Shown: positions 1 to 15,046, counted from the first letter of the stretch. The stretch is 17,583 nt of DNA from a virus (IMGVR_UViG_2609459845_000009), one strand, 5' to 3'. Notes: generated from the letters alone by a model not told the origin. A program made the numbers and translations.

Positions 1-939
1 TACGAATCGGTTGGCTGCAGCGATGCTGATCGGTTTGTTTATGTCTTCTCCAGGGAAAAGAACATCATTGTACGTTGTCATGGCCTTTTCGAGAAAAGGC
101 TTAATTTGTTCGAAGATTGGACGGCGGATAACATTACCCATCTTGCTATGCTCTTTCGGTACGGTCCATACGTTGTCCAGCAGGTCAAATTCTGTCTTTG
201 TTGCCAGCCTAAGCTCTGAGAGCCTCGCCCCCCACAGCATAAGCATCTGATGAAGGAGCTTATTTGACGTAGACGCACGGCTTCTTTCAATAGCAAGCCA
301 AATCTTAGCCAGTTCGTGATACGACAGTACCCGATCCCCTACCTCAGCGCGGGAGCCGAAGTCCCTTGGTTGGATGCTCATAATTGCGCAACTATCTATC
401 AACTGACGCCGCATGCACCAACTTATTGCTGATCTTAGTTGACTTAGCACCTGCCTTGCTCGGCGTGGATTATCTCTTTCTTCTTCGGTAAGCAGGTCAA
501 CCCATTGCTTAACCGTGATAGAAGATGCCGGACGATTAGGAAAGGCGTCATGCATGCGCTTCATAACCGTTGATCGGTAAAGTGCCTGGGTCTTTTCTCT
601 GAGAGTTGTAGAGACGTAGTTGTCGAACCAGTAGTCGAGACACTGGGCGACCGTCATGGAGTTCTCCACCTTCTCTTCAAAATAGGTGCGTGGATCCGTT
701 CCTGAGAAATAGAGCTTTCGCAAGTCAGCAGTGATCTGTCTGGCATCCTTCAAAGACAGGGATGGGTATCGACCAAGCCCAAGTCGATTAGGCTTGCCAT
801 GCCAGCGATAGCGGTACTGGAACTGGATGACCCCCTTCGGTGAAATTCGTACGCTGAGGCCATCGGCATCAGCCACTTCTTGTGGGCCCGAATATGGTTT
901 ACCATAAATAGTACGCAGTTTTGTGTCGCTTATAGCCAT
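1..939 (-). CDS. int: Tyrosine integrase, P4-like family, partial (C-terminal catalytic part lies beyond window start)
   Basis: Minus-strand ATG at 939-937; own translation gives MAISDTKLRTIYGKPYSGPQEVADADGLSVRISPKGVIQFQYRYRWHGKPNRLGLGRYPSLSLKDAR..., the DG-GL / RYR-GK / LGxYP-SL-AR pattern of the arm-binding N-terminus of P4-type integrases. Frame stays open to position 1 where checked (939-781 and 60-1). Missing from the supplied ORF track because it runs off the edge. Confidence 0.8.
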   Translation of the reverse strand, partial: MAISDTKLRTIYGKPYSGPQEVADADGLSVRISPKGVIQFQYRYRWHGKPNRLGLGRYPSLSLKDARQITADLRKLYFSGTDPRTYFEEKVENSMTVAQCLDYWFDNYVSTTLREKTQALYRSTVMKRMHDAFPNRPASSITVKQWVDLLTEEERDNPRRARQVLSQLRSAISWCMRRQLIDSCAIMSIQPRDFGSRAEVGDRVLSYHELAKIWLAIERSRASTSNKLLHQMLMLWGARLSELRLATKTEFDLLDNVWTVPKEHSKMGNVIRRPIFEQIKPFLEKAMTTYNDVLFPGEDINKPISIAAANRFV

Positions 940-947
940 AAATAATA

Positions 948-1243
948 TTTGGTACGCTCAAAAATAATGGTTTGGTACACATCTGGTACACAATATCACA
1001 TGGACAACAGCGCACAGTAAACAACTATATTTGACGTTCGTAGACATACTCAGGTTAAAAAAGGGTTGTTTTTCGAGTTATAACAGACAGTTAATTAACT
1101 ACAGTGGACAATGCTAGACAATGACAGGCACAGATAAACAACCTACCTTCCTCTTTCACGATTACGCGCAATACCCCTGAGAACCGCCATGAACAAGGGT
1201 TTCATGATTTGTGATTTTAGTTTGGTACGCAATTTGGTACACA
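948..1243. repeat. Five direct copies of TTGGTAC(A/G)C in two clusters (950-992 and 1223-1243) in the region upstream of int
   Basis: Read directly: TTTGGTACGC 948-957, TTTGGTACAC 971-980, CTGGTACACA 983-992, TTTGGTACGC 1221-1230, TTTGGTACAC 1234-1243, all same orientation. Confidence 0.5.
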
Positions 1244-1252
1244 ACACTATTT

Positions 1253-1651
1253 TCACTTCAGCGGGTAGTCATCAAACTCACCAGTCCGCGCGTCATTGAT
1301 GATGTACGTCACCACCCCCTTCACTACGACTCGTTCCTCACAATCGTCGTCAGTTATCCATGTCTTTTTATCAGCGTGGTCCAGTTCTTCCAGGTGCACC
1401 TTTGGCAGCAGCCTGAGACGCAACAGCCGTATCTGGTCATTCAGATGACAAATCACCAGGCTTCCGTCTACCGGAGTCAGCGATGTGTCCATGACCAGCA
1501 GAGCCCCTCTCTTGATTCCTTCCCGCCATGATGTAGCAGCGTAACGGATGAAGAATGTCGCCGCTGGTTTTCGTATCAACTCCTTGTCGAGTGAGATCGC
1601 ATCCTCGTGGTAATCAGCAGCAGGGCTGGGAAACTGTGACATGGCAACCAT
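1253..1651 (-). CDS. UmuD'-like protein (LexA/UmuD S24 peptidase fold; pre-processed HumD-like form)
   Basis: 132-aa ORF; N-terminus MVAMSQFPSPAADY matches the FPSPAADY segment that follows the Cys24-Gly25 cleavage site of E. coli UmuD (recalled). Ser of the GDSM motif is retained (ATSW), but the catalytic Lys position appears to be Arg/Leu. GAGGTGA Shine-Dalgarno upstream. Confidence 0.7.
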   Translation of the reverse strand: MVAMSQFPSPAADYHEDAISLDKELIRKPAATFFIRYAATSWREGIKRGALLVMDTSLTPVDGSLVICHLNDQIRLLRLRLLPKVHLEELDHADKKTWITDDDCEERVVVKGVVTYIINDARTGEFDDYPLK

Positions 1652-1666
1652 AACTCACCTCATTGG

Positions 1667-1686
1667 CACTGTATGTACATACAGTA
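1667..1686. promoter_or_regulatory. LexA (SOS) box CTGT-N8-ACAG upstream of the UmuD'-like gene
   Basis: CACTGTATGTACATACAGTA, an 18-bp perfect palindrome with CTGTATGTACATACAG at 1669-1684, about 18 nt upstream of the start codon at 1651. Confidence 0.7.
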
Positions 1687-1697
1687 CCAATGCATGG

Positions 1698-1740
1698 ATT
1701 TTGATCGTTGCAACCGATCGATTTGAAGATTTTGATCGTT
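1698..1740. repeat. Two 13-bp direct repeats GATTTTGATCGTT (1698-1710, 1728-1740) carrying three GATC sites in the divergent promoter region
   Basis: Read directly; GATC at 1703-1706, 1716-1719, 1734-1737; repeat spacing 30 bp. Confidence 0.45.
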
Positions 1741-1830
1741 ATTTCCCATAACCAAATAGTGAGCAATTTTGGGACATTTATTATAAATTTAAATTGTCTT
1801 TAAATATAAATATCCAATCGGTAAATCATC

Positions 1831-3117
1831 GTGAAAAATAATTCCGCGCTGTTTGTTGGTTCTTTTTTTGAAAGTGACCAAAGCTCAAAAGTAAACCTGG
1901 CATTATCTTATGATGGAGAACGATTCGAAAAAATAAAGGCTCAATTCCTTTGGGCTATTGGTGGAACTGGAGAAGTTTTAGGGAGAGACCCATCAATTAT
2001 TTATCACAACGGTTGGTGGTTAATAGCCGTATCAGGATATACAGAAAACGTTTATGACGTCGATTGCTGGCGCTCACGTGATTTAACCGTGTGGGAACTG
2101 GTACGAATTAAGCTTGGCGATACGCCAGTCTGTGGGAAACGATTACCGGGTTCAGATCTGGTGACCACTGACGTGTGGGCTCCTGAATGGTTTGTTGATG
2201 ACGAAAATCTGTTCCTGATAGTCAGCCTGCGTTATTACAACGATCAGACTGACAGTAAAGGTGTAAATGTCAAAAGTTTTAAAACATTCTATTCTGTCTG
2301 TTCTGATGTTGAGAGACTGGAGTTTTACGATCCGGTTGCGGTAAATATCGAACCAAAAAACATGATTGATTCTGTTTTTTCCAGAATATTCCAGACGTAT
2401 TACCTGACAATAAAAGATGAAATCACCAAAAAAATTGAGGTGTATTGTTCAAATTGTTTCTCAGGACAGTTCACGAAATTATCAGTAATTCCGTTTACTC
2501 AGGCGGCGGAAGGCCCGGCGCTGGTTTATTTGCCGGACGGCACGATCAGAATCTATGCGGATTTTTTCGACACAAAAAAATGGACTTATTTTGTAGACAC
2601 GAAAGACTTCGTGACGTTCACGCCAGAGCGCCCCGTTTTGTTTGACGGCAGAATTAAGCGCGGGACTATTACAAATGTGCTGAACTGGCGCGATAGTGAA
2701 ACCGCATTGCAGCAACTGTCGGCGCTGTTCTGTGCAAACTCCGGGGATTTACAGCCAGGGAAAATCCACAAGCTCATTGATGTAGCGGGAACGAGCAATA
2801 TCAACGCTACTGATTTAATCTGGTGGCCTGAAACTGGACATTGTTATTTCACCGAGGGGTTATCCGGTAACGTGACAATCAATGCGCTGCCAACTGTTTA
2901 CCCGGACGGGAGTTCGTTTTATCTGATGGTCCGAAGCGCAACGCCGGGAGCTGGTGATCTGACGCTTAAACAGGCTGTCGGCGACCTGTACCACCCGGCT
3001 AATGGCATGGCGATATTTGATGCTGATTTGGTAGTGGCGGCTGGCGGGAACGCCGCATCACGTCTGTTTAGAATGGTGTGCTTTGATGGCCAGTTGTGGG
3101 TTGAGGGGGTTTTCTGA
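1831..3117 (+). CDS. Hypothetical 428-aa protein; N-terminal part resembles a GH43-type five-bladed beta-propeller glycoside hydrolase, C-terminal about 140 aa unassigned
   Basis: Long ORF in an AT-rich island; GTG start (first in-frame ATG is far inside). Motifs in GH43-like order: RDPSIIYHNGWWLIAVSGY, DVWAPEW, AEGPALVYLPDG. No signal peptide. Assignment is motif-level only. Confidence 0.5.
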   Translation: MKNNSALFVGSFFESDQSSKVNLALSYDGERFEKIKAQFLWAIGGTGEVLGRDPSIIYHNGWWLIAVSGYTENVYDVDCWRSRDLTVWELVRIKLGDTPVCGKRLPGSDLVTTDVWAPEWFVDDENLFLIVSLRYYNDQTDSKGVNVKSFKTFYSVCSDVERLEFYDPVAVNIEPKNMIDSVFSRIFQTYYLTIKDEITKKIEVYCSNCFSGQFTKLSVIPFTQAAEGPALVYLPDGTIRIYADFFDTKKWTYFVDTKDFVTFTPERPVLFDGRIKRGTITNVLNWRDSETALQQLSALFCANSGDLQPGKIHKLIDVAGTSNINATDLIWWPETGHCYFTEGLSGNVTINALPTVYPDGSSFYLMVRSATPGAGDLTLKQAVGDLYHPANGMAIFDADLVVAAGGNAASRLFRMVCFDGQLWVEGVF

Positions 3118-3151
3118 TATAATTGTGGCTCAATGAAAATTGGGCCACATA

Positions 3152-4213
3152 ATGAACAATAAAATATTTTCCGTCCAGTATCTTCGTGGAATAGCAGCGC
3201 TACTTGTGGTGCTGTACCATTTTTCTTTTTTTACTCCGCGCTGGTTTGCTAATTTATTTGCAAATGGCATGGTGGGCGTTGATATTTTTTTCATTATCTC
3301 TGGATTTATTATTTATTGGTCAACAATAAATCCTGAGGAATGCAGACCAACGGTATTTATTGTTAAACGATTCGCCAGAATATACCCGCTATTTTTTGTT
3401 GTGTTACTGGTTTCGTTGTTATTGCAACCTGCGCCTGCCACACAATTATCCAGGGGTTTTCTGGTTCTGCACAACGATTACACACTACCCGCTCCGGCGT
3501 TTGGATTTAATCTGCTACCGCCCGCGTGGACATTGACTTATGAAATATCGTTCTACGCTATTTTCTGTATGTGCGCTGCAATAACGACCCGGTATCGAGG
3601 TTCATTGTGTATCGCGCTGCTGATTGCAATCCCGGCAGTGCTACAGGTTGCGTTTAATGGAGGGTTGTCGTTTAACAGCACAGTCACCGCTATCCCTCCT
3701 GCTGACTCGCCGTTTTATGGTCTAATCAGGCTGGCAGGCTCAACGATGTTTTATGAGTTTGCGTTTGGGATTATGTCTGGAATGATATTTGAAAGGTTTA
3801 AATTAATTCTTCCTAACTTAACTGCTATTACTATAGCAATATTCGCATCGGCTTTATTTTTCTATTTTTTCTTCACATTCTCAGACCATACCAGCGGTAT
3901 AGAAGGAATGTTCTTTTTTGCTGCAATATTTTTTGTGGGCGTTTTGATGCTGGATAAATCAAAGGCGGGAGAGATAAAAGCATTATCAATTCTTGGCGAC
4001 CTGACATATAGCATTTATCTCTGTCATTGGCTGGTAATGCAGATGGTACAGAAATTTATTCCGATTGGGGAGTATAAGCACTGGGGCGTCCTTGTCCCCT
4101 GCATGCTTGTTGCTTCTCTGATGATGGCATTCGCAGCTAACCGGATAATTGAAAAACCGTTTATCCGTCTGGCCCGTTCGGCGCTGAAACGCCAGGAGAT
4201 TACGACGCGGTAG
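3152..4213 (+). CDS. Acyltransferase family 3 integral membrane protein (OafA/Oac-like O-acetyltransferase)
   Basis: N-terminus MNNKIFSVQYLRGIAALLVVLYHF is the acyltransferase-3 signature; many hydrophobic segments; 34 nt downstream of the 428-aa gene, same strand. ATG 3152 preferred over the track's TTG at 3140. Confidence 0.8.
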   Translation: MNNKIFSVQYLRGIAALLVVLYHFSFFTPRWFANLFANGMVGVDIFFIISGFIIYWSTINPEECRPTVFIVKRFARIYPLFFVVLLVSLLLQPAPATQLSRGFLVLHNDYTLPAPAFGFNLLPPAWTLTYEISFYAIFCMCAAITTRYRGSLCIALLIAIPAVLQVAFNGGLSFNSTVTAIPPADSPFYGLIRLAGSTMFYEFAFGIMSGMIFERFKLILPNLTAITIAIFASALFFYFFFTFSDHTSGIEGMFFFAAIFFVGVLMLDKSKAGEIKALSILGDLTYSIYLCHWLVMQMVQKFIPIGEYKHWGVLVPCMLVASLMMAFAANRIIEKPFIRLARSALKRQEITTR

Positions 4214-4664
4214 CAGGACGTGGCGGCCATTCAAGGCTGTCACTTAATATCGCTGCTTCATCATTAAACTTCATTTTCTTCAAGGCATCGATATGAGCAA
4301 GCCACTCTTTAAAGGTCGCCTTCTCTTCATCGGTGATGATCTCCAGAATGAGCTTAGAAGGCCAGTGTTCGCTGCTTATATATGCGTTAGCCGCAGAGAT
4401 TAACGCATCTCTCTTTGACTCGGCCTGTGCCAGTTTAAGCGCGAACAGTTCTTCTTTAGTTGGCTCGGGAATTTTTTCCCACGCAGGCATGCCGTCTGGC
4501 CCTGCAACCCTTCGCATGCCGTCTTTAACTGTTGGGTAAAATTCGGCGAAAACACCCATATCAACCGGCACAGCATCACTGTATTCGTCCGTCTTTAACA
4601 GAGAGCTTTCCTTGAAAACAAAAGCGTTGCTTTTGGCACTATATAAAAAATCTGAATCAGACAT
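4200..4664 (-). CDS. tfa: Tail fibre assembly protein (Tfa family)
   Basis: 154 aa; position directly downstream of a tail-fibre C-terminal fragment with TAATG stop/start overlap; C-terminal region (DEEKATFKEWLAHIDALKKM...DSLEWPPRP) resembles Tfa chaperones from memory. Confidence 0.7.
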   Translation of the reverse strand: MSDSDFLYSAKSNAFVFKESSLLKTDEYSDAVPVDMGVFAEFYPTVKDGMRRVAGPDGMPAWEKIPEPTKEELFALKLAQAESKRDALISAANAYISSEHWPSKLILEIITDEEKATFKEWLAHIDALKKMKFNDEAAILSDSLEWPPRPATAS

Positions 4665-5099
4665 TACGCTCTCCCGATAGCAATCCAGTTAAAAACTGTT
4701 GGCTGCGCAGTAAAGTTGTGGTCGGACGAACTCCAGGTTGCAGAACGAACATTAAAGCTCCCTGCGTTAACCTTTTCGGCACCATACACGGTTAAGAGTT
4801 GATAGATACCGCCGGAGGCTGTCCATCCAGAGACATGGCCTTCTACTGCAAATACCTGGTATGAGCTCATCGCCACACCCATATTCACATTATAAAATCC
4901 GTTACTGTCCGTTGTACCTACATCCATCTGGATGATCATATTGCCAGGAAGGCGAATAACCACACCAGACCCGGTTGTTGTATAGGTAAAGGATGACATA
5001 TCCGGAACTTGCCCGGTAGCCGGTATAAATCACACACTCTCCGACATACACATCATCCGGATGGGCAAACAGCTCTTGTTTGTCTGTGAGCTCTGCCAT
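4664..5099 (-). pseudogene. stf: Side tail fibre C-terminal remnant, truncated at 5' end and split by a frameshift (65-aa + 111-aa ORFs)
   Basis: Two overlapping minus-strand ORFs in different frames (5099-4902 and 4999-4664), ending at the tfa start; no upstream tail-fibre body or any other structural genes. Confidence 0.5.
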
Positions 5100-5456
5100 T
5101 GTTGGCTCCGTTTATCCGTTAAAAGGGATATCAGTTAAGTTATCCCGTGCAGGGTATAAGCCATTGTCGAGACCACTCATTGAATGGCCTCTGCAATAAC
5201 CGATGTCTTTCCATCAGTCCGCCACAACAAAGAATCTTTTTTGCCATAAGGCAGGAGGTTCATCTTTCAGTGGCTGCCAGTGTTATTTCCCCACTTACTG
5301 GCTTGGGTTGTTTTGTGGTACTGCCGTAACTGGTTGCCAAGAATAAATTCCGGTTTCATTATCAAGCCCACCCGTAGATGGGCTTTGTAATGGATAGCCG
5401 TTGCTCAGTTCTCGTAATGCTTTGATTTTTCCGATAACGCAGTTTTGCGTTTGCCA

Positions 5457-5978
5457 TCAGCACGCGATATCGAGAGTCAACTGCAGTTGCTCGCGCCAGT
5501 ACTCAACATTTGCTTCAATAACCGGCTTATCCCATCGCCAGCGAGCCATCTCTCTTGCCCCATTGCTGGCTTTTGATTTCCGGTCATCGCGAATGCGACA
5601 TGCTTGCTCATATTTCTGCTGCTCAGTCAGTTCACCGCGAAGCAGACTATCAATGTGCAGGTCGCACCACACAGCAAAACGAGCATCACACCAACGGGCA
5701 AATGCAACTGAAAGTTTTGGATGTAGCCACGTACCACCACCCCTGTCCTTTCGTGCCTTGCTGGTTTTTACATACCTCGATTGTGAGGGATGTAAAATTT
5801 GAGATTCTTTCCCGGTCAACGCTTCGTCTAAAGCACGAACGTATTCAAGCGTTTCTGCCAAACGCATCCAGTTATCAATGCGTTTTCCAAATCTCTCAGC
5901 AACACCTGTGACGTTGATCCAACCATCAGTGTTGAAACTGACAATTTCACCTTTGTAATTAAGTGGCACGATATTCAT
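5457..5978 (-). CDS. KilA-N domain protein
   Basis: 173 aa; DGWINVTGVAERFGKRIDNWMRL and GTWLHPKLSVAFARWCDARFAVWCD match the KilA-N (APSES-like) domain pattern. Confidence 0.6.
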   Translation of the reverse strand: MNIVPLNYKGEIVSFNTDGWINVTGVAERFGKRIDNWMRLAETLEYVRALDEALTGKESQILHPSQSRYVKTSKARKDRGGGTWLHPKLSVAFARWCDARFAVWCDLHIDSLLRGELTEQQKYEQACRIRDDRKSKASNGAREMARWRWDKPVIEANVEYWREQLQLTLDIAC

Positions 5979-6091
5979 AACGTTTACCTACCATTTGAAA
6001 TGAACCTTTGCCGCATAGGAAACCAGCCCACCGAGGCTCGCCAGCACTAACTGGTATCCTCAAAGGCCCATTCCAAAGGGGCAGGTTCGGT

Positions 6092-6147
6092 GTAAAAAAC
6101 ATGCGTTGCGGTACGCATTTATTGCAAAAAGCCCCGCATCGCGAGGC
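6092..6147 (-). terminator. Two tandem putative intrinsic terminators downstream of Rz
   Basis: On the minus-strand RNA: hairpin GCCUCGC-GAU-GCGGGGC (6131-6147, one mismatch) followed by UUUUU; then hairpin AUGCGU-ACCGCA-ACGCAU (6101-6118) followed by GUUUUUU. Confidence 0.5.
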
Positions 6148-6179
6148 TCATTAAATTGACTTTGTGATTTGCAAAAAAA

Positions 6180-6638
6180 TTATTTCAGGCATTGCGTCCT
6201 GATGTATTCCTGCAGGTAGTTAACCTGCGCGGTTATCTTGTCGATTCCACTTCGGAGACGGTAATAATTGAGTTCAGCATCTGCTGTAAGTCTTGGGCTT
6301 TCTCCATCGCCCATGCTGCTGGCTCCGGTCGTTGACTTTGCACAGGTGGCGGCGACTTGCAGGCGCTTACGACCAGCAGAAACATCAGCACGGAGACTTT
6401 CGATAGTCGCGTTAGCATCAGCAAGCTCCTTTGTATATCTGGCATCGAGTTCTGCTACATCACGTTGACGCTTCCGCATGTCAGCGATGGTGGCGTTCGC
6501 CTTCTCCAGTTCACTGGCCTTGTTATCGCGCTGCTCTTTGTAGGCGATTGCGTTATCACGGTAATGATTGACCGCCCACGACAGGCAGACGATGATGCAG
6601 ATAACCAGAGCGGAGATAATCGCGGTTAACCGACTCAT
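6180..6638 (-). CDS. Rz: Spanin inner-membrane subunit Rz (lambda Rz-like)
   Basis: [34 protein letters not shown]... closely resembles lambda Rz; internal ATG at 6638 chosen over the ORF-track start at 6767. Confidence 0.9.
6233..6418 (-). CDS. Rz1: Spanin outer-membrane lipoprotein subunit Rz1, embedded in Rz in the +1 frame
   Basis: Embedded ORF with lipobox LLVVSAC followed by a proline-rich stretch [12 protein letters not shown]; start at 6418 or 6385 is uncertain. Confidence 0.7.
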
Positions 6639-6726
6639 GACATCAACACCCCAACGGCCAGAAACCACGGCCACGCATCGTTGCCATTCAATGCGAGCAA
6701 CGCTGCCATGAAAAAGCAAATCATGC

Positions 6727-7230
6727 TCATTGTTGCCCCCACAAACAGACTTCACGCTCAATCTCACGACGGGTCATCAGCCCTTTCCATTGCTTACCGC
6801 CAGCGTATGTCCAGCGCCGTAGCTGATCACATGCGCCCTTGATATCGCCCTGGTTTATTTTGCGAAGAAGCGTCGATGTTCTGAAATTGCCTGTGCCCAC
6901 GTTATAGACGAACGAGTAAAGAGCGCCGCGCGTTGTTTCCGGTATATCGACTTTGATGTACGGGTTAATTTGTCTGGCGACCGTGGCAAGGTCTTTATTC
7001 AGGAGGGCTTTGCATTCTGCTTCGGTATACGTTTTACCGAGCATGATGTCTTTTCCGGTGTGTCCGTGGCATACAGTCCATACACCAACAATATCTTTGT
7101 ATGGTATGTAGCTGACACCTTCCAGACCATCGTTACCACTCGGTCCAGTGATTAACACAGATGCTATAGCAATAGCCCCGCCACTTATCGCCGCTATTAC
7201 GCTATTTCGTAGTGCCGGTGACATTGCCAT
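6727..7230 (-). CDS. R: SAR endolysin (phage lysozyme, T4-lysozyme/GH24 type; P21 R / RrrD-like)
   Basis: N-terminal Gly/Ala-rich weakly hydrophobic segment [16 protein letters not shown] (signal-anchor-release type) followed by [25 protein letters not shown] catalytic region. Confidence 0.9.
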
Positions 7231-11340: not shown

Positions 11341-12696
<1,356 letters not shown>

Positions 12697-12746
12697 TCCC
12701 CACCTCAATCTCGATAACCAAAAAACAAACTATTTTCCGTTTAAAA

Positions 12747-12815
12747 ACAATGGAGTTTGTTTTTCATGCCCCTTTCTTACAATATTTCTTGTTTACAACA
12801 TACAATCTTTTTTGT
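12747..12815. promoter_or_regulatory. 434-type left operator OL sites with pL
   Basis: ACAA-N6-TTGT 14-mers at 12747-12760 (ACAATGGAGTTTGT), 12779-12792 (ACAATATTTCTTGT) and 12802-12815 (ACAATCTTTTTTGT), upstream of nutL and N. Confidence 0.75.
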
Positions 12816-12860
12816 AATTTTAAACCATCAGCAGGACGCACTGACCACCATTGAAGGTGA

Positions 12861-12891
12861 TGCTCTTAAAAATTAAGCCCTGAAGAAGGGC
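12861..12891 (+). promoter_or_regulatory. nutL (boxA TGCTCTTAA, boxB GCCCTGAAGAAGGGC)
   Basis: Read directly at 12861-12869 and 12877-12891. Confidence 0.8.
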
Positions 12892-13049
12892 AGCATTCAA
12901 AGCAGAAGGCTTTGGGGTGTGTGATACGAAACGAAGCATTGGCCGGAAGTGCGAATCCGGATTAGCTGCAAATGAGCCAATCGTGGGGTGTTTTCGTTCA
13001 GGACTACGACTCACACACACCACCAAAGCTAACTGACAAGAGAATCCAG

Positions 13050-13373
13050 ATGGATGCACAAACACGCCGCCGCGAACGTCGCGCAGAGAAACAGGCTCAA
13101 TGGAAAGCAGCAAATCCCCTGTTGGTTGGGGTAAGCGCAAAACCAGTTAACCGCCCTATTCTCTCGCTGAATCGCAAACCGAAATCACGAGTAGAAAGCG
13201 CACTGAATCCGATAGACCTTACGGTGCTGGCTGAATACCACGAACAGATTGAAAGCAACCTGCAACGTATTGAGCGCAAGAATCTTCGAGTTTGGTATAG
13301 CAAGCCAAGTGAGTTCGGTATAACTTGTCAAGGAAGACAAAAGGTTAAAGGGAAATCCATTCCATTGGCATGA
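13050..13373 (+). CDS. N: Antiterminator N
   Basis: MDAQTRRRERRAEKQAQWKAANPLLVGVSAKPVNRPILSLNRKPKSRVESALNPIDLTVLAEYHEQIESNLQRIERKN... matches lambda N, including the arginine-rich boxB-binding motif; ATG 13050. Confidence 0.95.
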   Translation: MDAQTRRRERRAEKQAQWKAANPLLVGVSAKPVNRPILSLNRKPKSRVESALNPIDLTVLAEYHEQIESNLQRIERKNLRVWYSKPSEFGITCQGRQKVKGKSIPLA

Positions 13374-13523
13374 GGTACGTAATGAAGAAAATTGATTACA
13401 AGTCCATACCAAAACCAATAGACTCAGCATCAGAGCGAAAAAAAACACAAAAAAGAGGCTGAAAAATTAGCAAATTATATCAGTTTTATTAGAAACAATG
13501 CTCACGGCGATGGCGACAGGAAG

Positions 13524-14252
13524 TTGCTTTCAGATGCCCGGACCCAAGCGTTCAGCATACTTCGTAAGCAGATGCAATATCGTCTTCATCCAGGCTACAT
13601 AATTGAAATTCGCCCGACTGAAAGACAATTGTTCTTATTAAACTCTGTCTTTGACTTTGTAAACGTAGTTGGAGATCTTATCGACAGGTCTGTAGATAAG
13701 GCTCCTGATACAAATAGTTTTCTTCTAACAAATAAAGAATACTTATATGGTAAATTTGGTATAAACGGATGGCAAAAATATGTACGATTCTTACGTGCAT
13801 TCGTTGATGCGAATAAAAATTCCGACATGATTTATACATATTTGCCTGGTGGTAATAATTGTACGCTTTCGGCAGACAATAGAATATTCATACCTATACT
13901 TGGTCTTGGGCTGATTAATGCAGTAAATGAAAGAGATGTTATAATTGTTAAGCAGTGGCGAAAGCATGAGGGATATAGATATCTGCCATGCTTTGATATA
14001 TTAAAAATACAGAATAAATTCTATGTAAAAATTAAATATAAAGAAGATGTTTTCTTCCTCAGAAAAAACAAAGATCTTTTACAAGAACTTTCTGGGACAA
14101 TAGATGTCATCGTAGGTTCTAGGTTTATAAAAGAACTGAAAGAAAGCAGGTCTTTCTCTCGTGTAGAGATAAGCGAGTCAGAGTTATGGGGTATATCAAA
14201 TAATCCTGTAAACCACGCTCACCAACGAAATCCAAACAAAAAGTGGTCATAA
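13524..14252 (+). CDS. Hypothetical 242-aa protein in an AT-rich insert between N and ea10 (the ral/sieB position)
   Basis: Long ORF with TTG start at 13524 (the first in-frame ATG, at 13572, would give 226 aa); no recognisable motifs; followed by a hairpin plus T-run. Confidence 0.5.
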   Translation: MLSDARTQAFSILRKQMQYRLHPGYIIEIRPTERQLFLLNSVFDFVNVVGDLIDRSVDKAPDTNSFLLTNKEYLYGKFGINGWQKYVRFLRAFVDANKNSDMIYTYLPGGNNCTLSADNRIFIPILGLGLINAVNERDVIIVKQWRKHEGYRYLPCFDILKIQNKFYVKIKYKEDVFFLRKNKDLLQELSGTIDVIVGSRFIKELKESRSFSRVEISESELWGISNNPVNHAHQRNPNKKWS

Positions 14253-14276
14253 CCCGCTCAGGCGGGTTTCATTTTC
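14251..14276 (+). terminator. Putative intrinsic terminator after the 242-aa gene
   Basis: AACCCGC-TCAG-GCGGGTT hairpin followed by TCATTTT. Confidence 0.45.
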
Positions 14277-14394
14277 ACGCAAACAACAGAATAAACACTG
14301 CACTGTGTATTCATTCCAACGAGTGAATACACGGAGCAATGTCGCTCGTAACTAAACAGGAGTCGACTTGTTCTGATTATTGGAAATCTTCTTT

Positions 14395-14421
14395 GCCCTC
14401 CAGTGTGAGGGCGATTTTTTA
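14395..14421 (+). terminator. Intrinsic terminator or attenuator upstream of ea10
   Basis: GCCCTC-CAGTGT-GAGGGC hairpin followed by GATTTTTT. Confidence 0.6.
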
Positions 14422-14440
14422 TCTGTGAGGATATGAACAG

Positions 14441-14809
14441 ATGTCAAACATCAAAAAATACATCATTGATTACGACTGGAAAGCATCAATAGAAATTGAA
14501 ATCGACCATGACGTAATGACAGAGGAAAAACTTCACCAGATTAATAATTTCTGGTCAGACTCTGAATACCGACTCAATAAACACGGCTCTGTATTAAATG
14601 CTGTATTAATCATGCTGGCGCAACATGCTCTGCTTATAGCAATTTCAAGCGACTTAAATGCATATGGTGTTGTGTGTGAGTTCGACTGGAATGATGGAAA
14701 TGGTCAGGAAGGATGGCCTCCAATGGATGGTAGCGAAGGAATAAGAATTACCGATATCGATACATCAGGAATATTTGATCCAGATGATATGACTATCAAA
14801 GCCGCCTGA
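14441..14809 (+). CDS. ea10: Ea10-like early protein
   Basis: 122-aa ORF directly upstream of cIII, matching the lambda ea10 position and length; sequence identity to lambda Ea10 is recalled only tentatively. Confidence 0.6.
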   Translation: MSNIKKYIIDYDWKASIEIEIDHDVMTEEKLHQINNFWSDSEYRLNKHGSVLNAVLIMLAQHALLIAISSDLNAYGVVCEFDWNDGNGQEGWPPMDGSEGIRITDIDTSGIFDPDDMTIKAA

Positions 14810-14881
14810 GCGCGGCGTTACCGCATACCAATAACGCTTCACTCGAGGCGTTTTTCGTTATGTATAAATAAGGAGCACACC

Positions 14882-15046
14882 ATGCAATATGCCATTGCAG
14901 GGTGGCCTGTTGCTGGCTGCCCTTCCGAATCTTTACTTGAACGAATCACCCGTAAATTACGTGACGGATGGAAACGCCTTATCGACATACTTAATCAGCC
15001 AGGAGTCCCAAAAAATGGATCAAACACTTATGGCTATCCAGACTAA
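14882..15046 (+). CDS. cIII: CIII (FtsH inhibitor)
   Basis: [54 protein letters not shown] matches lambda CIII; AGGAG 6 nt upstream. Not in the ORF track (under 60 aa). Confidence 0.9.
   Translation: MQYAIAGWPVAGCPSESLLERITRKLRDGWKRLIDILNQPGVPKNGSNTYGYPD

Follow-up and report, generated by a model that had tools for sequence, protein, structure and literature searches.

A phage 434-type gene between N and ea10 joins the Nun C-terminal peptide to a predicted TnpB-like core and is frameshifted in one prophage lineage

The viral sequence IMGVR_UViG_2609459845_000009, a stretch of 17,583 nucleotides referred to here as the window, carries between the antiterminator gene N and ea10 a single gene whose intact form, known from phage 434, encodes a 289-amino acid protein ending in the C-terminal peptide of the phage protein Nun. 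The window is 97–98% identical to phage 434, and its + strand, on which the features of this region located below lie, is a 434-type pL operon. N (13050–13373, with its TGA stop codon at 13371–13373) encodes 107 amino acids, is annotated as N in 434, matches Pfam N36 (E=3e-26) and contains the lambda-type arginine-rich boxB-binding motif (ARM) MDAQTRRRERR. On the other side of the slot lies ea10 (14441–14809, Pfam DUF2528), followed by cIII, kil, gam, bet and exo. The interval between N and ea10 (13374–14440) holds exactly one gene and has a GC content of 35.0%, compared with 46.6% in the window and 48% in N. It is 97.4% identical to 434 over its whole length, while its lambda equivalent carries sieB, orf28 and ral, and homology to lambda picks up again at 14281. 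An earlier note on this DNA had described lambda-like flanks around a slot that holds ral and sieB in lambda, occupied here by one AT-rich gene with hairpin terminators after it. This description was accurate: the flanks are lambda- and 434-like, and intrinsic terminators lie at 14251–14268 and 14393–14414.

The coding sequence of the gene in 434, labelled “Nun C-terminal peptide-containing protein” in GenBank, begins 8 nucleotides past the N stop codon. Alignment to it places the window copy at 13382–14252, with the equivalent start codon at ATG 13382, and reveals a +1 frameshift. A homopolymer of eight adenines (A8, 13438–13445), covering the last base of the Arg19 codon and the Lys20 and Lys21 codons, stands where the intact allele has seven (A7), so that the frame opened at 13382 ends after 26 codons (13382–13462; MKKIDYKSIPKPIDSASERKKTQKRG, then a stop). 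Removal of one A gives back the 289 residues, with 10 substitutions relative to 434. The earlier note had taken the gene to encode 242 amino acids; that open reading frame (ORF), read from a TTG start (13524–14252), turned out to be the out-of-frame remainder of the longer gene, which is full length in 434 and intact in nearly all E. coli genomes that carry it. Among 5426 complete E. coli genomes, 2239 match some of the query, in nearly every case just its short right-hand end, which is also present in lambda; the 289-amino acid gene is carried by 83, and its spacing is intact in 81 of these. The remaining two copies have other length changes in or beside the A-runs of the Lys codons, and in both the annotation pipeline PGAP calls just a 226-amino acid ORF from Met64 (13572–14252 in the window), a possible internal-start product that would comprise the core and tail without the N-terminal helical hairpin.

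None of the 83 E. coli copies has the A8 allele, which is found in the viral loci L048, L071 and L115. L071 (IMG/VR contig UViG_2609459845_000023) is identical to the window over 8.9 kb (100% identity), and two further viral contigs with A8 are 99.87% identical to the window, with 13–15 substitutions in 10 kb. Because the same allele is present in two other assemblies, the frameshift is inherited rather than a read error, and a sequencing error is an unlikely cause. The two A-runs of the Lys codons (A7 and A6; 13438–13454 in the window) form a recurrent frameshift site with three alleles, namely A8+A6, A7+A7 and the loss of one base from the second run or its immediate vicinity; loci L004 and L005 carry frameshifts other than A8 in or beside these runs. 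Every such allele leaves the 226-amino acid Met64 ORF, equivalent to the minimal architecture found in the distant relatives described below. In the prophage lineage of the window the full-length protein cannot be made; at most, the 226-residue core and tail could be produced from Met64.

Nun is the textbook example of exclusion by a phage protein: it jams RNA polymerase (RNAP) and so keeps out a rival. The last 14 residues of the 434-type protein, VNHAHQRNPNKKWS (14208–14249; residues 276–289, equivalent to Nun 96–109, with the gene stop codon at 14250–14252), are identical to the C-terminus of HK022 and HK75 Nun, matching chain N of PDB 6ALG and PHROG 5632, with an hhalign E-value of 2e-9. 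The gene is therefore not devoid of recognisable motifs, as had been claimed for it. At the DNA level, identity to HK75 nun begins one codon before the peptide and continues through the shared terminators, a common module at 14207–14422 with 94.9% identity. In the cryo-electron microscopy structure of the Nun complex, only the extended residues 87–109 are ordered and visible (PDB 6ALG; PMC5386594). Seven Nun residues (N97, H98, H100, R102, K106, K107 and W108) contact RNA, DNA or the β' rudder, or impair arrest when substituted, while N103 was the non-contacting control in that study (PMC5386594). All seven are invariant in relatives that are 37–49% identical in the body of the protein, where the pattern V-N-H-A-H-x-R-x-x-x-K-K-W is kept unchanged and positions 103 and 105 vary. 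Codon comparison gave 0.09–0.13 non-synonymous differences per site in the tail versus 0.36–0.41 in the body, with synonymous sites saturated in both. Given so few non-synonymous differences against a saturated synonymous background, the tail, which is predicted to be disordered, is ancient in the family and under strong purifying selection, and is not a recent recombination scar.

The body of the protein was approached by structure prediction. Two AlphaFold models were made, and the better one, an AlphaFold2 model with distant relatives in the alignment, has a predicted local distance difference score (pLDDT) of 83 and a predicted template-modelling score (pTM) of 0.78. From N- to C-terminus, the modules of the intact protein are a helical hairpin (residues 16–65), a TnpB/Cas12-like core, a long helix (223–258), a disordered linker (259–281) and the Nun peptide. 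The core (residues ~70–220; 13590–14042) is modelled as a strand (71–77), helices (80–145) and a beta-sheet (152–218), a split topology that corresponds in the model to the WED (split beta-barrel) plus REC (helical) fold of TnpB and Cas12. The best Foldseek match of the model is ISDra2 TnpB (E=0.1, probability 0.84), and the earlier, shallow AlphaFold model returned the same list of folds. Neither a RuvC domain with its catalytic triad nor a zinc-finger/TNB insertion is present in the model, which past residue 218 consists of just the long helix and the disordered tail. A PDB profile search with the whole-family profile found no TnpB by sequence; aligned by hhalign to ISDra2 TnpB residues 1–203, the family gave a sole, weak match of 29 columns (P=0.017) that puts the first strand and the start of the “L.P...Q...L” (P..Q) helix in the expected register. 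We consider it likely that the body has a TnpB-like fold, a prediction that comes from the modelled structure.

Family databases were nearly silent. Pfam, NCBIfam and PADLOC gave no match for the window ORF and up to 27 family members: Pfam, including OrfB_IS605 and HTH_OrfB_IS605, matched none of the 27, and the PADLOC defence-protein hidden Markov models matched none of five. The only PHROG matches were 12139, a group without an assigned function, and, on the tail, the Nun PHROG. No relevant Rfam match to a guide RNA was obtained, and the hairpins downstream are terminators common to lambda and HK75, both of which lack the gene. The 289-amino acid protein also contains no ARM. A Lys-rich stretch, ERKKHKKEAEKLANY, resembles AEKQAQW of lambda N in the 434-type sequence alone, where AEKLANY has an aromatic residue at the position of lambda N W18; it was dropped as a candidate ARM because it is not conserved in P0002–P0007.

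The position of the gene points to expression together with N. Alignment to annotated 434 places the −10 hexamer of pL at 12814–12819 and the start of the leftward transcript at ~12827; the nutL boxB hairpin GCCCTGAAGAAGGGC (12877–12891) is identical to the annotated 434 nutL stem-loop. The putative Shine-Dalgarno sequence of the gene, GAGG (13372–13375), shares bases with the N stop codon and lies where 434 has its annotated ribosome binding site. The stretch from pL to the gene contains no predicted terminator, and the first terminator-like + strand site in the scanned region (12600–14900, pL included) is the intrinsic terminator hairpin at 14251–14268, which overlaps the gene stop. It is followed by a hairpin in the lambda-shared spacer (GTGTATTCA...TGAATACAC, 14305–14331) and by a second intrinsic terminator with a T-run after it (14393–14414, an annotated terminator in 434). 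In the scanned region five intrinsic terminators were found, versus 1.9 expected. An intrinsic terminator stands directly after the gene in the window and in L008, and in L006 the terminator follows a small ORF just downstream. Since no terminator is predicted from pL to the gene and one comes right after it, the gene would be made together with N, before antitermination is needed. Lambda sieB has its own promoter and is expressed from the prophage. The earlier note had asked whether the gene here likewise has a promoter of its own; promoter-like sites occur at chance level (six found versus 6.1 expected), and the gene belongs to the pL operon, tightly coupled to N.

This coupling extends across the family. 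The gene starts 1–8 nucleotides after an N-type gene in every lineage with readable context (P0002, P0004, P0005, P0006 and P0007); for P0007 the preceding N is a remnant in L015 but intact in L092. Among the 32 listed viral loci, the gene lies directly downstream of N in at least 27 (25 by an automatic check, plus L136 and L092). In L084 (~6076–6990) no N ORF separates it from the cI-type repressor gene that it directly follows, and this is the position of nun in HK022.

The family is very small, with five clusters in 5.8 billion sequences and a few more among representatives. A profile search of 1.84 billion representatives yielded 32 proteins, the distant ones 220–290 amino acids long and aligning to residues ~71–225. 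Species-representative genomes contained no relatives of the 289-amino acid protein, and in these genomes the tail pattern found only small Nun-like proteins (Providencia, Proteus, Photorhabdus, Shimwellia, Escherichia) and chance matches. Scanning viral contigs for the tail codons revealed at least 120 loci that encode the tail. Those listed comprise ~88 small proteins (80–125 amino acids) that join the tail to many different ARMs, and 32 of the TnpB-like type. An ARM is seen in nearly all of the ~88, leaving aside those cut by a contig end or an internal start, and some begin with a lambda-N-like N-terminus, MDAQARRREKRK...; the 289-amino acid type is the only tail carrier without an ARM among the matches listed. 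The Nun tail is therefore a portable module on dozens of different ARMs, and since it is found on a predicted TnpB-like body as well, the combination of a targeting module with the Nun arrest peptide is a broader kind than HK022 Nun. As the N gene lies directly upstream of a tail-bearing gene, an in-frame deletion could create a Nun-like gene. Locus L042 has two different genes of the ARM-plus-tail type in tandem (− strand matches at 3257–3292 and 3556–3591), after a cI-like gene and with a short N-like ORF, an arrangement that suggests stacked arrest factors with different RNA specificities.

The distant relatives P0010–P0036 lack the Nun tail and end in another conserved peptide, ...L.G..V.GGLPSLGK[KR]R. 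This sequence also ends many small phage proteins with unrelated N-termini, for example C2HC zinc-finger ORFs of 80–97 amino acids (PHROG 20899), and it has the look of a second portable effector peptide. The motif GGLPSLGK was found in no paper. ORFs of this type are located at L006 8883–9152, in L051 and in L147–L167, and in L006 and L051 they lie directly downstream of a gene ending in a Nun-type tail. One relative of the GGLPSLGKRR type, P0020, is present in identical form in an 870-bp unit in three contexts (L011 1399–2269, L012 2494–3365 and L013 697–1563). The unit has GTTAG.. cores at its bounds and a structured 3' end of 120 nucleotides, which is what an integron gene cassette with its attC site would look like. 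Another relative, P0030, adjoins glnS at contig ends in 17 contigs.

Compared with HK022 and HK75 Nun, the 434-type protein keeps the tail at the extreme C-terminus, past a disordered linker, and is likewise encoded in a lambdoid pL region, with the 3' DNA and terminators of HK75 nun in common. Unlike Nun, which has 109–112 amino acids, it has 289, and in place of the ARM and the N-like middle it has the predicted WED and REC core and the helical hairpin. Whereas nun replaces N, the 434-type gene follows an intact N in an N-using phage, and it shows no sign of expression from the prophage. With TnpB and Cas12 (ISDra2 TnpB, PDB 8H1J and 8BF8) it shares the N-terminal strand and P..Q helix start in register; it differs in having neither RuvC nor the zinc-finger/TNB element, in carrying an RNAP arrest peptide instead of a nuclease, and in the lack of a detectable guide RNA, of transposon ends and of significant sequence similarity. 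Precedents for the domestication of such proteins to transcription control exist in TldR and in exapted dCas12f homologs, which derive from TnpB or Cas12f, are in some cases encoded by phages, and control transcription rather than cutting DNA (bioRxiv 10.1101/2023.11.30.569447; PMC13472631). These work at promoters or with sigma factors and retain both a guide RNA and an inactivated RuvC, in contrast with the 434-type protein, which has no RuvC-like domain and no guide RNA found in Rfam searches, and which would act on elongating polymerase through its Nun peptide. With lambda sieB and ral the gene shares its place between N and ea10, and sieB is an exclusion gene; the 434-type gene has no sequence or structural relationship to either and, unlike sieB, is coupled to N.

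The slot had been proposed as a defence or exclusion hotspot, on the strength of a gene of unknown kind, rich in AT and replacing sieB, and not on that of the Nun tail. Part of this proposal stands. The slot is variable, and because the gene in it encodes the effector peptide of Nun, which is a classic superinfection-exclusion protein, a role in exclusion or competition is plausible. In the window itself the gene is frameshifted, and PADLOC offers no match.

We consider the chances slightly better than even that the 289-amino acid protein is a Nun-type elongation-arrest factor in which a TnpB-derived core replaces the ARM as the targeting part, a reading that draws on the sequence and the model. 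The gene would be transcribed from pL along with N, with a ribosome binding site overlapping the N stop and the first predicted terminator just past the gene. The C-terminal peptide would then enter the active-site cleft of the E. coli RNAP elongation complex and block translocation as Nun does, while the core would select elongation complexes through a feature of the DNA, the RNA or their hybrid. That Nun by itself, at high concentration, arrests even complexes lacking nut, and that its overexpression is toxic (PMC5386594), speaks for this reading. We infer that the product probably serves in competition with other phages or in an early-infection shut-down of non-phage transcription.

Several observations weigh against this reading. 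No cognate RNA or DNA target was found, Rfam gave nothing, and the downstream hairpins are also present in lambda, without the gene. The 434-type protein does not conserve Nun H93 and R94, two residues in contact with the upstream DNA duplex. In divergent members the last residue is W, and the terminal S, which in Nun pairs through its carboxylate with R102, is missing. There is also a risk that an N-dependent phage would arrest its own transcription. Lastly, the window copy and several others are frameshifted, which could mean that the gene is dispensable or counter-selected; by analogy with overexpressed Nun, the recurrent frameshifts are also compatible with a product that is costly when leaky.

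A further-reaching form of the arrest reading is that a TnpB descendant without RuvC recognises a specific DNA motif, RNA structure or RNA–DNA hybrid, possibly with an RNA partner, and delivers the Nun peptide there, giving programmable or sequence-directed arrest. We regard this as quite unlikely. If true, Nun-like proteins may arise, even repeatedly, by fusion of an N-type gene to the tail of such an adjacent gene, and GGLPSLGK[KR]R would be a second portable effector peptide against a core cellular machine.

The strongest alternative concerns the window copy alone and is compatible with an arrest factor in the family at large: it stands at even chances that the locus is a dead gene from which nothing functional is made. 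The A8 allele ends the frame after 26 codons and is inherited, being present in two more prophage assemblies, and, as read from the sequence, the ribosome binding sites ahead of the internal starts are weak or poorly spaced. Yet the rest of the ORF is intact, with only 10 substitutions relative to 434 and a non-synonymous to synonymous ratio of ~0.3, and translation from Met64 would give a core plus tail, precisely the architecture seen in the distant relatives. Slippage at a low level on an A8 run is also possible.

For the family as a whole, the product might instead regulate the phage's own N-dependent transcription, being recruited to N/nut-modified complexes or to complexes from pL and pR, where its Nun tail would slow or time early transcription and so provide negative feedback on N, with no exclusion involved. 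Such a role would account for the strict and long-lived adjacency to N, with apparent translational coupling across lineages only 37–49% identical, and for expression with N before the first terminator; Nun itself acts on nut-containing complexes. We think it unlikely nonetheless. The protein has neither an ARM nor any other known boxB-, NusA- or N-binding motif, and its Lys-rich N-terminal stretch is not conserved in the family; in L084 the gene stands after cI with no N ORF; and distant relatives exist outside phages as single-gene cassettes.

Very doubtful, in our estimate, is a general shut-off of host or competitor transcription, in which the tail of a protein abundantly made early in infection would hit unmodified complexes non-specifically and N-modified complexes would be immune. 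Lambda N runs through the hybrid cavity of RNAP (PMC9378689), and this cavity is the cleft that Nun enters; immunity of complexes whose cavity is filled by the N C-terminus would explain why the gene is linked to N and, judging from its position, co-expressed with it. Nun alone at high concentration arrests elongation complexes without nut, and its overexpression is toxic (PMC5386594). This proposal leaves the conserved TnpB-like core without a role and does not fit L084, which lacks N, and the mutual exclusion of N and the Nun tail that it needs is itself conjectural. That the tail is an irrelevant by-product of mosaic recombination with nun, the core alone acting as a DNA- or RNA-binding regulator or anti-defence factor, is scarcely probable: the abrupt onset of HK75 nun identity at the codon before VNHAH, running into the shared terminators, is the signature of a mosaic joint, and distant relatives bear a different tail, GGLPSLGKRR, but the Nun tail has been kept despite many synonymous changes, with only conservative replacements at non-contact positions, on bodies 37–49% identical, and is three to four times more constrained than those bodies.

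GenBank already records the Nun tail of this gene in its annotation of phage 434; the gene goes unmentioned in the 434 genome announcement, and a literature search found no paper linking Nun with TnpB or Nun with phage 434. What is new, as far as we found, is that the core is predicted to be TnpB-like, that the gene is strictly linked to N and that the tail is under selection in divergent members. To our knowledge, Nun has until now been known only as a small protein composed of an ARM and the tail. In the classic phage 434 and its relatives the same tail is also found on a body of 270 residues, predicted to be a TnpB WED/REC module without a nuclease. The 289-amino acid product probably represents a new type of targeted transcription-arrest factor, of which the window has a broken copy. 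If so, TnpB would have been domesticated independently once more, after Cas12, TldR and dCas12f–sigma, and for the first time against elongating polymerase. An easy experimental system would then be available in phage 434, E. coli and the Nun-resistant rpoC alleles that already exist, suited to asking what directs arrest peptides to their targets and why this gene accompanies N. For the window itself the outcome is more modest: the gene is already known and annotated in 434, and the copy here is frameshifted.

Elsewhere in the window, the left third (1–6368) has no alignment to phage 434, and its best phage matches begin at ~5100–6370. The 434-type cI gene (11663–12295, + strand) is followed downstream by a homolog of the 434 Hex “repressor protection protein” (12292–12696), which a mechanical ORF list stretches to 158 amino acids from ATG 12220, overlapping the end of cI. 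Past ea10, 14869–14927 gives a strong Rfam match (88.5 bits) to the lambda cIII thermoregulator element RF01804, which is expected upstream of and within cIII.
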